Of a DNA stretch of 64,000 bases, positions 21-40,025 are shown one piece after another. The position numbers and the translations under genes were made by a program. The stretch spans positions 1,568,001-1,632,000 of the forward strand of contig CAVXRD010000002.1 of the NCBI GenBank assembly GCA_963764165.1, written 5' to 3'. The DNA is from an uncultured Verrucomicrobiae bacterium. Its GTDB lineage: Bacteria > Verrucomicrobiota > Verrucomicrobiia > Limisphaerales > Palsa-1400. Every line of letters starts with the position of its first letter. Positions within the stretch are counted from its first letter, which is position 1. Below the pieces are notes generated by a model, which ran no database searches, was not told where the DNA came from, and saw only the letters and a list, made by a program, of their open reading frames with translations.

Positions 21-188
21 TTTTAATTTGGAACGACCGAACTCAGGAAAAGAGATCGAAGTCAATTTCACGCGCGTCTTTAATCCGCGTTCACCACGGC
101 GTATTTGTCCCCTCAATTCACATTAATTCCCGTCGCTTGGAATGCGAATGCGGCCTCTTTTCCTGAGTTCGGCCGTTCCAGATTAAAA
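21..188. repeat. MITE-like element, family B (34-bp terminal inverted repeats)
   Basis: 21-54 TTTTAATTTGGAACGACCGAACTCAGGAAAAGAG is the reverse complement (2 mismatches) of 155-188. The same arms occur at 10424-10577 and 21052-21083. Confidence 0.8.
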
Positions 189-8830: not shown

Positions 8831-8860
8831 GGCCACAGATTGGCACAGACCAACGCAGAT
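8831..8860. repeat. Solo arm of the CACAGAT triple-repeat (GxxExxY-associated) family
   Basis: GGCCACAGAT TGGCACAGAC CAACGCAGAT immediately after the uvrA stop. Confidence 0.7.
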
Positions 8861-8973
8861 TTTCGGAAAGACATTCCTTTGATAGGCATTGGCCATTGAG
8901 CGCAAAAGCGGTGAGTTAAAACCATTTCCGTCATCTTGCATTGCTCCTCCCGTTGACGCATTCTTGATTGACT

Positions 8974-10423: not shown

Positions 10424-10577
10424 AATCAGGAACGACCGGACGCAGGAAAAGAGGCGGACGTGCCAATCTTATGCCTTTTGTCTCGTTCCATGGCGGCGAC
10501 GAGTGGAATGCATCAAAAAACCCAGAGCGCGCACGATGAATTTAGATCTCCGTTCCTGAGTTCGGTCGTTCCTGATT
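10424..10577. repeat. MITE-like element, family B
   Basis: AATCAGGAACGACCGGACGCAGGAA and inverted TTCCTGAGTTCGGTCGTTCCTGATT (2 mismatches), between the convergent fumC and MOSC genes. Confidence 0.8.
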
Positions 10578-12060: not shown

Positions 12061-12209
12061 GCCGCAGATGGACCCAGGTCAGCGCGGATGAAAAGAAGTT
12101 CGAAAAAAGCGAAACCTAGGCGCCGGCACTTCATCAATTCAACGGGCCGCCATTTGCCAAAGCAAATCGTCCATCAAAAATTTGCGTTGATCTGCGCCCA
12201 TCTGCGGCG
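12061..12209. repeat. GxxExxY-derived miniature element (degenerate)
   Basis: Forward arm GCCGCAGATG... at 12061 and reverse arm TTTGCGTTGATCTGCGCCCATCTGCGGC at ~12181-12208. The interior TCATCAATT...GGCCGC resembles the GxxExxY 3' end. Confidence 0.6.
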
Positions 12210-18147: not shown

Positions 18148-18227
18148 GCCACAGATGCGCATGGATGACTCATGTTTTCGATGAGGGGAACCGGGGCGCC
18201 GAGAGATGACCCGCCTTTACTGTGGCT
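18148..18227. repeat. Degenerate CACAGAT-family element overlapping the obgE stop
   Basis: GCCACAGATGCGCACGGATG at 18148. The opposite arm CTGTGGCT at ~18220-18227 encodes the last obgE codons. Confidence 0.5.
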
Positions 18228-20655: not shown

Positions 20656-20687
20656 TGTTCCTCTGCGCACTCATCTTCTCTGCGCGA
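20656..20687. repeat. Dispersed 32-bp repeat, family C
   Basis: TGTTCCTCTGCGCACTCATCTTCTCTGCGCGA, with a copy (1 mismatch) at 39799-39830. Confidence 0.75.
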
Positions 20688-21155
20688 ACGTTCTTTTCCC
20701 TCTGGGGCGACTTCGTAACGGATTCCAATAGTCCGGGGATTAAGCTGCGTGTGTGCGCGGTAAGCGGCCTCGACGATCTGTGCGTGAATTCACTGGCTTT
20801 CATCGTGGCATTAAACGCAATCGCGCGCAGAGGTGCGGAGAACGCAGAGTTTCCTCGCCGAAATGAATCAAATTTGGCGCTGCTGCTCCACCGAAGTCGT
20901 TGAGGAACCCGGAAATTCCGTTGCTGTGGCCCCGATGACCTTCAATATGACCTTGCATATGCATCGTTACACTTTGGCACGGCTGGGGCTGGATGGAAAA
21001 CCTACCAGAGTGTTTTCGGCACGATTTTGGGAGGAAAAATGCGGTGAATTGAATCAGGAACGACCGAACGCAGGAAAAGAGGCCAATGGGGGACTTCAAC
21101 GCAAGGACGCCAAGTCGCAAGGGCACAGGAATTTGGCTGACTCTTGGGAAAGGAG

Positions 21156-30098: not shown

Positions 30099-30127
30099 AT
30101 CTGCGTTGATCTGCGTGAATCTGCGGG
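30099..30127. repeat. Arm of the CACAGAT triple-repeat family
   Basis: ATCTGCGTTGATCTGCGTGAATCTGCGGG, just downstream of the M23 gene stop and upstream of hsdM. Confidence 0.7.
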
Positions 30128-33541: not shown

Positions 33542-33673
33542 GCCACAGATTGACACAGATCAACACAGATTAAAAACCGGGAAACAAAACCGGTCAGCAT
33601 GACATCATCGGCGCTCGGGCTGTCAACCGAAATGCTTTTCAGGAATCTGTGTTGATCTGTGCCAATCTGTGGC
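33542..33673. mobile_element. Internally deleted miniature copy of the GxxExxY element
   Basis: Inverted triple repeats enclose CCGGTCAGCATGACATCATCGGCGC (like the gene 5' end, 33708-33733), fused to a stretch like the gene 3' end. Confidence 0.65.
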
Positions 33674-33689
33674 CTATTTAATTCGGCCA

Positions 33690-34058
33690 ATGAGCGACGA
33701 ACGGGATCCAGTTACGCACGACATCATTGGCGCGGCGTTTGAGGTTTATCGGGTGCTGGGGTATGGCTTTCTCGAAAAAGTTTATCAGCGAGCTTTGCAG
33801 GCGGAATTGGTGCTTCGAAAGCGCAACGCTGGATTGGAGCATCGGATTCCCGTTCAATACAAAGGCGCAGTTGTCGGCGATTATGTCGCCGACCTTTTGG
33901 TGGAGGGTTCTGTGCTTGTGGAATTGAAGGTTGCCCCCGAATATCAGATTGCGGACGAAGCGCAACTGCTCAACCAGTTGAAAGCCACCCGTCTCAAGAT
34001 CGGATTGCTCATCAATTTTGGCCGCTCCAAGGTCGAGTTCAAACGAATGGTCTTCTGA
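33690..34058 (+). CDS. GxxExxY family protein (PD-(D/E)XK-like)
   Basis: IIGAAFEV..LGYGFLEKVYQ, ADLLVE..VLVELK, QLLNQL..GLLINFG. Confidence 0.93.
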   Translation: MSDERDPVTHDIIGAAFEVYRVLGYGFLEKVYQRALQAELVLRKRNAGLEHRIPVQYKGAVVGDYVADLLVEGSVLVELKVAPEYQIADEAQLLNQLKATRLKIGLLINFGRSKVEFKRMVF

Positions 34059-34292
34059 AAAAATCTGTGTTGATCTATGTGAATCTGTGGCTGTTTTGCC
34101 CCAAGTTGCGAAATATTGAGAAATAATTCGCTTTGCGTCCGGGGCCGGGGCATATTGCCCAAGTTCGTTAGATGGCTTAGTTCGTTTCAAGTCTGGAGAA
34201 TTCTCAAGTGAACTTGGTTCTGTGATGATTCGAAACCCGATTGTCGGGGACTATTTGGAGCAAAGGGTTTGTCTTTTAGAACATCACATAAC

Positions 34293-34601
34293 ATGAGTAA
34301 TAATAAATTGTTCGTTGGAAATCTTTCCTTCAACACCACCCAAAACGATCTTCAAGACAAGTTTTCCGCCCACGGCACCGTGCAGGAAGTCAACTTGATG
34401 ATGGATCGCGAAACCGGCCGCCCCCGCGGCTTCGGCTTCATCACCATGAGCACCGACGCTGAAGGCCAGGCCGCCATCGACGCGCTCAACGGCCAGACCG
34501 TTGATGGCCGCGCCCTGACGGTTAATGTTGCCAAGCCGCGCGAAGAGCGCAGCGGTGGCGATCGCCGCCCCTACAGTGGTGCGGGCCGATCCAGCCGATA
34601 A
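34293..34601 (+). CDS. RRM RNA-binding protein
   Basis: RNP2 LFVGNL, RNP1 RGFGFITM and a G/R-rich tail. Confidence 0.95.
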
Positions 34602-34622
34602 TACTCGGTAGAATATTTCAGG

Positions 34623-34659
34623 CGAGGATTGGGTAAAACCATTCCTCGTTCTTTTTTTT
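34623..34659 (+). terminator. Rho-independent terminator after the RRM gene
   Basis: CGAGGA...TCCTCG stem followed by TTCTTTTTTTT. Confidence 0.7.
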
Positions 34660-34722
34660 CTGCTCGTGACCGGTTGGTTGCCGGAAACGGGCCATATTTT
34701 TAGCAGGTTACCGAAAAACAAC

Positions 34723-34947
34723 ATGACACAAGCAAAAGAGCAGCACATTGAAGTGGAAGGCGTGGTCGCGGTGGTCCTTCCCGGCACGATGTTCCGGGTT
34801 GAATTGTCGAACAAGCACATCGTGCTGGCGACGATTTGCGGCAAGATGCGCAAGCGCTGGGTGCGCCTGACCGTCGGCGACCGCGTGAAGCTGGAAATGT
34901 CGCCTTACGATTTGAACCGGGCGCGCATCACCTGGCGCCTCGGATAA
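34723..34947 (+). CDS. infA: Translation initiation factor IF-1
   Basis: [34 protein letters not shown]. Confidence 0.95.
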
Positions 34948-34970
34948 TCACGAAGGCCGTTGAGGCTGAG

Positions 34971-35113
34971 GCCGCAGATTGACGCAGATGAACGCAGATA
35001 AGAGGCCGAACCCAACTAACGTGGTTCGGTCACGCGCCGCCTCATTGGCCAGACGCGGGTTAAACAACCATTCTTTCAGAAACAATCTGCGTTGATCTGC
35101 GTCCCTCTGCGGC
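34971..35113. mobile_element. GxxExxY-derived miniature element
   Basis: GCCGCAGATTGACGCAGATGAACGCAGAT ... ATCTGCGTTGATCTGCGTCCCTCTGCGGC. Interior similar to 35789-35927. Confidence 0.65.
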
Positions 35114-35148
35114 TCTTTCCTCCCTCCGGAATTCTGCTATCTTGGAAG

Positions 35149-35781
35149 ATGCATTGTTTGATTAAGGAGTGGAGAACGGCCATCGTGTTTTTGACAGTAT
35201 GTTTGTGCGCCGGCTGTTCCAGCTTCACCTATTCTCCGGCTTATCCCGCATCCTATCCGCCATTGGCAAATCGGGCCGGCCTGGCCATTCAGCGGGGCAA
35301 AGATTTGCGCCCGCCGGACCGCATCACCCCAGGATGGTGCAAGCCCGCCGAGCCAATCGTCGCGCGCGCCCTGGCTGAAGAAGCGCGCCACGCGAATCTT
35401 TTTGAGCGCGTGAAAGTGCATCCCCGAGCCGCAAACCCCAACAAGTATCCGATTCTGGTCGAGTGTGACGTGATTAAATTCGATTGCGTGAACACAGCCA
35501 CCGTTTTCGAGAATATCGGACGGACCGTGCTGCAAGCGCAAGGGCTTCACGGCGCGCTCATCGCCGCCAGCATCCCCTCCGAATACACCTCCGAGATCGA
35601 GATCCGATTTCAAGTTCTGGACCCGGCGACTGGCCTCCCCAAATTCGCGAGGAACTACCGCGCCCAGCGCACAACGACCGCCAACGGATACCAGGGAAAA
35701 AAGCCCTTGATGCAACAAACCAGCGCCGCCTTGGAAGAAGTCATCGCCCAGTTCTTACGCGATCTGGCTAAGATGCCATAA
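35149..35781 (+). CDS. Hypothetical lipoprotein
   Basis: Signal peptide ending LCAGC. No recognised family. Confidence 0.7.
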   Translation: MHCLIKEWRTAIVFLTVCLCAGCSSFTYSPAYPASYPPLANRAGLAIQRGKDLRPPDRITPGWCKPAEPIVARALAEEARHANLFERVKVHPRAANPNKYPILVECDVIKFDCVNTATVFENIGRTVLQAQGLHGALIAASIPSEYTSEIEIRFQVLDPATGLPKFARNYRAQRTTTANGYQGKKPLMQQTSAALEEVIAQFLRDLAKMP

Positions 35782-35788
35782 CTCTTTT

Positions 35789-35927
35789 GCCGCAGATGGA
35801 CGCAGACTAAAAGCAATTCAGGCGGAACTCGACAAACACGGCTCGGACACACCCCGAGGTCTGGACAGACGCGTGTCAAACAATTATTCTTCAGAAAAAT
35901 CTGCGTTGATCTGCGTTAATCCGCGGC
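35789..35927. mobile_element. GxxExxY-derived miniature element
   Basis: Same inverted arms. Interior TCAAACAATTATTCTTCAGAAAAATCTG matches the gene end TCAAACGAATGGTCTTCTGAAAAAATCTG. Confidence 0.65.
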
Positions 35928-36557
35928 TAAACCCGGCCAGGAACGAGGATCGGAATCCGATAACACACGACCCCAGCGCTGCGGCTCTTGCACCCGCGCG
36001 GCGGCGGTTTTCCGTGGATCGATTTTATCCGCCAGCACATCTTCGATCACTTTTTCGGTCAGTTGCGACGGGTACCCAATCCACGCAATACGGCCTGCTT
36101 TGTTAATAATGACGGCGGTGGGGATGGTGTGGCCTTCGACTTTGCGCTTCCACCAGTGGCTCGCCATAAAACCATTTGTGTCCTGCGTCTTGTCATCCAT
36201 CGCGACGCGGTATGTCATCTTGCCGCCCATTTTTTTCACGAAAGGCTCCACGGCTTCGTCTTTGTCCCAGACGTTTTGGCCGATCACGATGACACCCTTG
36301 TCCTTGAATTTCTCCGCCAGCTCATTGAGATGCGGAATGGATACGAGGCAAGGTCCGCACCATGTGGCCCAGAATTCGACAATGTATACGTGGTCTGCAT
36401 CGAATTGCCGGACCGGCTCGCCTTGCACCCATTTGCCGACTTGGAGCGTGGGCGCGGGATCTCCGATGTTGAGCATCGCGCATTCCGCGCGCAGAGCAGC
36501 AAAGACCGTCATTCCGAGCAACAAAAAAATTCGATTTGAAAAAGGCAGATTTTTCAT
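35916..36557 (-). CDS. TlpA-like thiol:disulfide oxidoreductase
   Basis: Signal peptide, IGDPAP, EFWATWCGPC, IPT. The stop lies inside the miniature element. Confidence 0.9.
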   Translation of the reverse strand: MKNLPFSNRIFLLLGMTVFAALRAECAMLNIGDPAPTLQVGKWVQGEPVRQFDADHVYIVEFWATWCGPCLVSIPHLNELAEKFKDKGVIVIGQNVWDKDEAVEPFVKKMGGKMTYRVAMDDKTQDTNGFMASHWWKRKVEGHTIPTAVIINKAGRIAWIGYPSQLTEKVIEDVLADKIDPRKTAAARVQEPQRWGRVLSDSDPRSWPGLAAD

Positions 36558-36639
36558 TTCGTTTCCATTCAATGCCATCCGCCAAACTTCGTCAACCATT
36601 CAGAGGCGGGCTTTCAGGGCAGAGGCATCTTAATTCCAA

Positions 36640-39798: not shown

Positions 39799-39830
39799 TG
39801 TTCCTCTGCGCACTCATCTTCTTTGCGCGA
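39799..39830. repeat. Dispersed 32-bp repeat, family C
   Basis: Copy of 20656-20687 with 1 mismatch. Confidence 0.75.
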
Positions 39831-40025
39831 GACAATTGACTCTCCTCGCCAAAAAAGAAATGACTCACCACCTGATACGAATAACACCTAATGGCAGCTA
39901 AGAGATCTTGGGCGCAAAGTCTGTCATGCCAACTAACGCAGTGCCGCAAATCGCCCAGCCAGCAAACGCGGCGGGTCATAAACAATGTCACACGACGCCT
40001 CAAAGCTGAATACACGCCTTTCAAT

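Follow-up and report, generated by a model that had tools for sequence, protein, structure and literature searches.

A GxxExxY gene of a Limisphaerales bacterium and its inverted heptad repeats: a candidate nuclease-plus-cognate-repeat system

Proteins of the GxxExxY (PDDEXK_3) family are very widespread, and a 2012 survey of the PD-(D/E)XK superfamily lists their function as 'Unknown' (PMC3424549). The literature searches made for this analysis found no function assignment for the family and no description of an association between GxxExxY genes and inverted repeats; one paper mentions a GxxExxY domain, but just as a neighboring gene. The question of what such a protein might act on is raised by a locus in an uncultured Verrucomicrobiae bacterium (Limisphaerales, Palsa-1400; GenBank GCA_963764165.1), where a GxxExxY gene lies beside arrays of a short periodic repeat that also bound gene-less units nearby. 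The stretch analyzed, called the window here, comprises 64,000 nucleotides, positions 1568001-1632000 of contig 2 (C2) of a 7.0-Mb genome in five contigs (G000). An initial annotation of the locus had proposed that gene and gene-less units are related as an insertion sequence (IS) is to its miniature inverted-repeat transposable elements (MITEs), and that they spread by a mechanism unlike that of DDE or HUH transposases.

The analysis shows that three diverged GxxExxY genes of this one genome are paired one to one with three families of repeat arms. The preferred explanation, to which a probability of about 50% is given, is a nuclease-plus-cognate-repeat system in which the protein would bind its own heptad arms and cut near them, while the arm-bounded units would be copied, moved or kept uniform; the repeats would then be selfish DNA of a type that seems not to have been described.

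Three genes and three arm families in one genome

Three genes of the genome score above the GxxExxY family cut-off, together with one fragment, and they are 36-45% identical to one another. Each of the three is accompanied by its own family of arms:

Family A: flanks the window gene; 139 arms, in 41 pairs and 57 solo arms
Family B: gene at C2:709769, sandwiched by two complete hairpins; 68 arms, in 19 pairs and 30 solo arms
Family C: gene at C2:1025025 (to 1025360), enclosed by one arm pair in a 557-bp unit, with the stop codon inside the arm; 121 arms, in 37 pairs and 47 solo arms

A fourth family, D, has 63 arms at up to 5 mismatches, or 65 by a 26-nt pattern, 28 of them exact. Arms occur within 600 bp of all four GxxExxY loci, against a background of 0.061, and within 600 bp of none of the ten genomic matches to the Y1 transposase model PF01797. 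Different families share an intergenic gap 11 times, with 11.9 +/- 3.0 expected, so there is no co-clustering. Two family-C mini-units (arms TTAATCAGGAACGACCGAACTCAGGAA...) also lie in the window, at 30-179 and 10429-10572, and are cognate to the gene at G000:C2:1025025-1025360, not to the window gene. Other abundant repeats of the genome are non-periodic: a palindrome on GGGACGCCTCGCCGAGGCGTCCC (top 12-mer count 408), a 40-nt repeat with the core GTCTTCGACACAGCCGCGCTCCG (136) and a tandem repeat of GCAATAGGGT. The GGGACGCCTCGCCGAGGCGTCCC palindrome was not found within 600 bp of any of the checked Y1 transposase or GxxExxY genes.

The window gene and the family-A features around it are the following, with the strand given where one applies:

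33690..34058, + strand: GxxExxY / PDDEXK_3 gene, 122 aa; ATG at 33690, TGA at 34056-34058; G26-E29-Y32, D68, E78 and K80 present
34063..34091: right arm of the gene-bearing unit, 4 nt past the stop; ATCTGTGTTG-ATCTATGTGA-ATCTGTGGC, that is, ATCTGTG-TTG-ATCTATG-TGA-ATCTGTG-GC
33542..33570: left arm of mini-unit 1 (family A); GCCACAGAT-TGA-CACAGAT-CAA-CACAGAT, three heptads with a 10-bp period
33589..33614, + strand: 5' coding remnant of mini-unit 1, about codons 9-17 of the gene (DRVTHDIIGA region)
33622..33644, + strand: 3' coding remnant of mini-unit 1, with a match to the consensus GTCAAaCnAAtGnCTTnTCAGAAA of the gene's final codons and stop
33645..33673: right arm of mini-unit 1, in right-arm and not left-arm orientation although it lies 16 bp before the ATG of the gene
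34971..35113: mini-unit 2 (CGCAGAT subtype), 23 nt past the stop of an infA-like gene; 3' remnant and borderline 5' remnant
35789..35927: mini-unit 3 (CGCAGAT subtype), beginning 7 nt past the preceding gene's stop; highest-scoring 3' remnant (score 11)
12061..12209: degenerate but complete family-A unit with inverted arms
8831..8888 (arm 8831-8860), - strand: solo family-A arm with a 3' remnant, directly past the stop of a uvrA-like gene
30099..30127: solo family-A arm
18148..18227: candidate unit, marginal and very decayed; a single good heptad remains, plus a CTGTGGC end

The triple repeat past the gene thus recurs, as first described, as the inverted termini of all three neighboring units (33542-33673, 34971-35113 and 35789-35927), the left arm of mini-unit 3 being partly decayed, with only two good heptads remaining. 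The more distant copies that had been proposed are a full unit at 12061-12209 and solo arms at 8831 and 30099, and the one at 18148 is only marginal. At up to one mismatch the two-heptad pattern occurs 20 times in the window, compared with 0.14 expected and at most 2 in 100 shuffles. Left arm, remnant, right arm, gene and right arm follow one another at the window gene, which is a non-canonical layout.

The identification of the open reading frame as a GxxExxY protein with a PD-(D/E)XK fold held up in profile score, motif and modeled structure. In profile searches the window protein scores 124.9 bits against TIGR04256 (cut-off 35) and 120 bits against PF13366 PDDEXK_3 (cut-off 22), its sole Pfam match. 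In an alignment with 27 relatives, G26, E29, Y32, D68, N109 and F110 are invariant in all 28 sequences, and E78 and K80 are present in at least 90%; judged by this motif, the predicted PD-(D/E)XK catalytic set (D68, E78-x-K80 and the helix glutamate E29) is intact. The AlphaFold2 model (pLDDT, the predicted local distance difference test score, 93.7) has the element order H-H-E-E-E-H-E-E, and the modeled protein contains the alpha-beta-beta-beta-alpha-beta core fold of the superfamily. Its top solved neighbor in Foldseek is the Cas4 protein SSO0001 (4ic1; E 6.7e-5, template modeling score 0.60), followed by lambda-exonuclease-like enzymes (LHK-Exo), MGME1, Hjc and RecU. A search of the PDB by sequence and a search of PHROGs each gave 0 matches for the window protein, and homodimer prediction gave no verdict, with a score of 0.00. 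An anti-phage defense system was considered and rejected, as no PADLOC model (0 families) matches the window protein; a weak Cas4 match (E 0.002) concerns the family-B gene only. The nearest named relative of the window gene is in a metagenome-assembled genome of Verrucomicrobiota.

Gene-less units and their coding remnants

Gene-less units retain traces of the gene's ends, most clearly at the 3' end. When the 32 nt inside each family-A arm are compared with the final codons of the gene (EFKRMVF-stop), 27 of 138 arms score above the 99th percentile of shuffles, against about 1.4 expected. A 5' remnant is seen in the unit at 33542-33673, which scores 15 against the 5' end of the window gene (null 99th percentile 14) and, against the 75%-identical gene of the congener G003, matches at 24 of 28 nt with a score of 18 (null maximum 15). 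The unit at 34971-35113 is borderline (15 vs 14), and across all mini-units just 1-2 of 29 exceed the 99th percentile, so the 5' remnant is not general. The claim that the interiors of the mini-units are remnants of both gene ends is therefore retained for the 3' end across these 27 arms and for the 5' end only in the unit at 33542-33673. It depends on how the comparison is made: naive local alignment of whole mini interiors with the gene regions, in a 3x3 family matrix, gave nothing above shuffles, and the arm-anchored comparison was positive at the 3' end. When the three GxxExxY proteins were searched against all units with tblastn, a pseudogene alone was significant; this copy, truncated at its 5' end, lies at C1:65126-65518, immediately after a left arm of family A.

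The interiors of family-D units code for the 30-40 aa at the C terminus of a GxxExxY protein; some copies also contain an N-terminal IV.AAYRVH stretch. A profile built for this analysis detects these remnants at E 2.9e-4 among the 209,386 six-frame pieces of the genome, and a restricted profile search gave 2 matches in 5321 pieces against 0 in 13,847 control pieces. Two family-D arms (CGCGCAGAG-AAGATGAGT-GCGCAGAG) lie in the window at 20657-20688 and 39800-39831, and the interior beside the first encodes an N-terminal GxxExxY remnant (IVEAAYRAHTQL.PGLLES). An isolated C-terminal remnant of family-D type is present at G000:C2:584466-584687 (E 0.0037 genome-wide), with no recognizable arms around it. 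In sequence terms, a relationship of the mini-units to the gene-bearing unit as of non-autonomous to autonomous elements is supported, and it extends beyond the window gene.

The units are largely intergenic. Within open frames of at least 200 aa lie 20% of the units of family A, 42% of family B and 6% of family C, compared with 80-84% of random segments, and 15/41, 5/19 and 18/35 units, respectively, are within 30 bp of the stop of a converging open frame. Between copies, the arms are 87%, 82% and 86% identical in the same order. Many units of all three families show, by eye, weak extra palindromy just outside the arms (GGGAA ... TTCCC), of which position logos give a weak signal.

Relatives, orthologous sites and other phyla

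The comparison set consisted of 21 genomes, namely this genome and 20 relatives, including four congeners. The GxxExxY family is present in 16 of the 20 relatives. Of 29 loci tested, the window locus and 28 in relatives, 26 have inverted periodic arms (z>=5) on their flanks; this answers in the affirmative whether GxxExxY genes elsewhere have such arms. The arm words vary by protein clade and include CACAGAT, ACAGGAT, CGCGAAA, CACGAAT, GCGAAGG, GCAGAG and CTTCGTT. Arm similarity follows protein identity (Mantel r 0.60, with 0 of 5000 permutations as high), a signal that comes mostly from close pairs, r being 0.15 below 60% identity. At one relative's locus (L142, G004:C6:192300-193250) a GxxExxY unit with GGCGCAAAAGGCACAAAA-type arms nearly fills the gap between two co-oriented genes, in the order stop codon, 2 nt, arm ... 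arm, 6 nt, next ATG.

A pattern search of the 21 genomes gave the following arm counts:

Family A: 138 in this genome; 56 and 59 in two congeners, 0 in the other two
Family B: 68 in this genome; 50, 30, 2 and 0 in the congeners; 16 in the one-contig relative G007
Family C: 130 in this genome; 0 in the four congeners; 1 weak match elsewhere
Family D: 65 in this genome; 0 in the congeners; 1 elsewhere

The distribution is patchy. Among the 21 genomes, families C and D are confined to this lineage save for the single matches elsewhere, and the congener without any GxxExxY gene has 0, 2, 0 and 0 arms of families A, B, C and D.

Individual sites were compared as well. Between the RNase III gene and the next gene, congener G003 carries a complete 446-bp family-A element consisting of an arm, 3 bp, ATG...TAG, 3 bp and an arm, while in congener G002 the two genes are about 40 bp apart with no element. 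This genome has a family-C mini-unit at the same promoter-proximal spot (window 30-179), and its upstream neighbor differs. On contig 85 of G002 (G002:C85), a GxxExxY gene follows a full hairpin unit. After infA and uvrA, no unit is found in the four congeners, nor is there a family-A arm past the uvrA-like gene in any of them. Congener synteny is broken (70-80% DNA identity, genes on different contigs), leaving no clean empty sites at infA and uvrA. At these genes the congeners lack the unit, and an exact filled/empty pair was not found.

Beyond the relatives, 80 loci were found with the window protein as query, encoding proteins 44-80% identical to it. They span Verrucomicrobiota, Planctomycetota, Lentisphaerae, Acidobacteriota, Calditrichota, Chloroflexota, Bacteroidota, Nitrospinota and other phyla. 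Flanking inverted arms (z>=6) are present at 58 of the 80 loci, compared with 5 of 74 distal controls, and in nearly all of these arms the basic word is GCCAC[A/G]GAT, recurring every 10-12 bp. Because these non-coding arms are conserved at 44-80% protein identity, they are likely to be functional partners of the gene. Canonical copies leave no more than 3-40 bp between the open reading frame and the arms. Loci L126, L074 and L070 have two or three tandem left-arm copies, or a whole hairpin, beside the gene, so extra arm copies such as those in the window are recurrent.

Proposed mechanism, rival explanations and known systems

The sequence comparisons show the architecture, the pairing of genes with arm families, the arm conservation and the lineage-specific presence of whole families; from these we infer arm binding, cutting and mobility of the units, along the following lines. 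The heptads are spaced about one helical turn apart, and several protomers may sit side by side on one face of an arm; alternatively, the site of a protomer may be the hairpin or cruciform stem formed by two arms. The PD-(D/E)XK site would cleave at or near the arms, and host repair or replication would then duplicate or re-insert the arm-bounded unit. Gene-less units would be served in trans by the protein.

Several observations weigh against this explanation. No intact cognate gene was found in the genome for family D, which is an orphan family. The interiors of the units are 57-61% identical compared with 53-56% when shuffled, which is near random, and only 4/28, 9/14 and 2/25 units of families A, B and C fall in clusters with similar interiors. 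Because the arms are conserved while the interiors are near random, the population appears old and not the product of a recent MITE burst; the pattern looks more like old loci with arms under selection or conversion than like ongoing transposition. A scan for target duplications gave nothing beyond palindromic GC (39/41) or TTAA (12/37), indistinguishable from the arm ends. Among 97 joined flank pairs examined for paralogous empty sites, one spanning match was obtained (77 nt, 79% identity), which is too weak for an empty site; by this count of 1/97 the flanks are unique, which argues that the copies are not segmental duplications. The window gene itself has no correctly oriented left arm beside it, the upstream array belonging to mini-unit 1. 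Gene and repeat are also uncoupled in some relatives: congener G004 has 59 family-A arms, but both its genes carry other arm types, and G007 has 16 family-B and 4 family-A arms with no GxxExxY match at E<=1e-5, its repeats appearing to have outlived, or never to have had, a resident gene. The flanks of the filled G003 site and the empty G002 site are not alignable base for base, and after infA and uvrA the adjoining downstream DNA of the congeners differs too. Residue-to-base covariation on a 73-row tree reached a raw phi of 0.8, with just 1-4 independent pairs behind it. The proposed IS/MITE relationship is accordingly borne out in shared arms, coding ends and cognate families, and not in target duplications, an exact filled/empty pair or a recent burst.

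The age of the population invites the explanation that the units no longer move at all. In an Ssn-type host-integrated system, the protein would be a sequence-specific nuclease or binding protein, and the dispersed arm arrays would serve the cell, for instance by restricting or steering recombination or incoming DNA or by giving structure to intergenic regions, and would be kept by selection, the arms that flank the genes being a relic of mobile origin or a means of autoregulation. Ssn nucleases of the GIY-YIG type, which are described as cutting at their own dispersed hairpin repeats and modulating transformation (PMC11893778), are a precedent, and the conserved arms at loci with near-random interiors, the one gene copy per family and the intergenic position of the units, often at most 30 bp from a converging stop, fit such a role. 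Whole families that are present or absent among congeners are, however, unexpected for a fixed host function, and families persist without a cognate gene. The coding remnants in the mini-units also suggest descent from gene-bearing units, not independent binding sites, and the arm word is shared by close protein relatives from many phyla; a host-integrated system is considered unlikely. Still less probable is a scheme in which some other enzyme moves the hairpin units as REP-like repeats in their own right and the GxxExxY genes are passengers or homing-type genes inserted in or beside them. The genome does hold many other repeat families and transposases, including the ten Y1 matches, orphan families exist, and genes sometimes adjoin complete hairpins (the family-B gene between two, the window gene and the G002:C85 gene); but none of the Y1 genes has arms within 600 bp, and remnants of the gene's own ends, as seen in the mini-units, would be absent from a target that existed beforehand. 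Moreover, a protein clade keeps its arm word from phylum to phylum, arm similarity follows protein identity, and in canonical copies the open reading frame leaves only 3-40 bp of the inter-arm space.

An element acting at the RNA level, with arms that pair in the transcript and a stem that is processed, as in ribosomal RNA (rRNA) intervening sequences, or that regulates how the enclosed reading frame and neighboring messages are translated or how stable they are, is very improbable. The units do lie just past stop codons and fold strongly as single strands (-40.6 and -46.3 kcal/mol, z -9.3 and -8.5), but a hairpin is automatic for any inverted repeat, and direct repeats at helical spacing point to protein binding on DNA. 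Arm mismatches of the G-T and A-C types number 34 vs 33, 21 vs 14 and 11 vs 12; this lack of a G-T excess, and hence of a wobble signature, argues against an RNA helix under selection. The Rfam scan gave no match on the arm-bounded units, and a scan for promoters and terminators turned up nothing linked to the element, nor a T run of the kind seen in terminators. Outside the units, between an RRM-protein gene and the infA-like gene, window 34527-34661 resembles the L20 leader of Rfam below threshold (24.7 bits, gathering score 58.7). Public RNA data comprised a single run with 0.05 of the words, and its contigs, from a relative, extend over no more than the RRM-protein gene and a portion of the one at 35916-36599. 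An rRNA intervening sequence with an open reading frame was separately ruled out: the units lie between protein-coding genes, and no match to PF05635 (four-helix-bundle) exceeds the cut-off in the genome.

The nuclease-plus-repeat explanation remains to be placed among known mobile systems. As in DDE-type IS/MITE pairs, gene-bearing and internally deleted units share inverted termini and subterminal sequence. In contrast to such pairs, no transposase of a known family lies between the arms, the 446-bp canonical element is filled by an open reading frame of the 122-aa type, no target-site duplication was found in the scan described above, the copies are not near-identical, and the full unit is only about 450-560 bp. 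Nucleases of the PD-(D/E)XK type can serve mobile DNA through end cleavage or homing, as TnsA of Tn7 and homing endonucleases such as I-Ssp6803I do; TnsA needs the DDE partner TnsB, and the homing enzymes sit in introns and have one target. Neither TnsA nor PD-(D/E)XK homing enzymes are known to be paired with dispersed periodic arms. As for a homing gene, a filled (G003) and an empty (G002) intergenic site exist, with flanks that are not alignable.

The closest likenesses are to REPIN/RAYT and Ssn/SRM. A REPIN/RAYT system likewise has a single-copy small enzyme gene flanked by its own repeats, with distinct genes tied to distinct repeat families (PMC3337134), as are the three GxxExxY genes here; in Pseudomonas fluorescens SBW25, three single-copy RAYTs are described, each with its own REPIN family (PMC3337134). 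The non-autonomous units in both cases are two inverted repeats with a spacer, intergenic and in long-lived populations. The enzyme differs, however, an HUH/Y1 transposase there and a predicted PD-(D/E)XK protein here, as do the repeats, which are single imperfect palindromes there and arms of three direct heptads here, with only the arm pair inverted. A further difference is that the mini-units here retain pieces of the gene's coding sequence. Inheritance of REPIN-RAYT systems is described as mostly vertical (PMC3116915; bioRxiv 10.1101/2022.05.22.493013), whereas the same arm word with close relatives in many phyla suggests horizontal spread here.

In the Ssn/SRM arrangement (NTS-ssnA-NTS), a small single-domain nuclease gene is flanked on both sides by inverted repeats that are dispersed genome-wide; many enzyme/repeat pairs seemingly co-evolve, and the authors remark on an IS-like architecture (PMC11893778). 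The enzyme there is of the GIY-YIG type and the repeat a hairpin with an oriented upstream motif, in contrast to the PD-(D/E)XK protein and periodic heptad arrays here, and cutting specific to single-stranded DNA has been demonstrated for Ssn (PMC11893778). REPtrons and TIRtrons similarly box an enzyme gene in terminal inverted repeats of moderately abundant families, but their enzymes are tyrosine (Y1) transposases (PMC3733652). By its predicted features, then, the system would work like REPIN/RAYT and Ssn/SRM, and its enzyme falls outside both definitions, being neither HUH/Y1 nor GIY-YIG. The proposal that spread is unlike that of DDE or HUH elements gains from the lack of arms near Y1 genes and of a known transposase in the unit, and for movement itself there is neither a target duplication nor an exact filled/empty pair. 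That PD-(D/E)XK is a third superfamily, after HUH/Y1 RAYT and GIY-YIG Ssn, with a small nuclease gene and its own repeat population, whose target may be readable from the flanking heptads and whose units would be spread or homogenized without DDE or HUH chemistry, is put slightly below even odds.

For a family as widespread as GxxExxY, the heptad arrays around each gene are a concrete candidate partner. What this genome newly contributes is three cognate gene/repeat pairs with an orphan family, two lineage-confined families, coding remnants at both ends of mini-units, and conserved arms set against decayed interiors; the three pairs and the orphan family within one genome make a cross-comparison of specificity possible. 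If the protein cuts at the arms, it would be a third enzyme class among repeat-propagating systems. The explanation, if true, would also account for a large share of the intergenic repeats in Verrucomicrobiota, Planctomycetota and other phyla, and the family would be a very large natural set of miniature sequence-specific nucleases, the specificity of which could be read from the flanking DNA.

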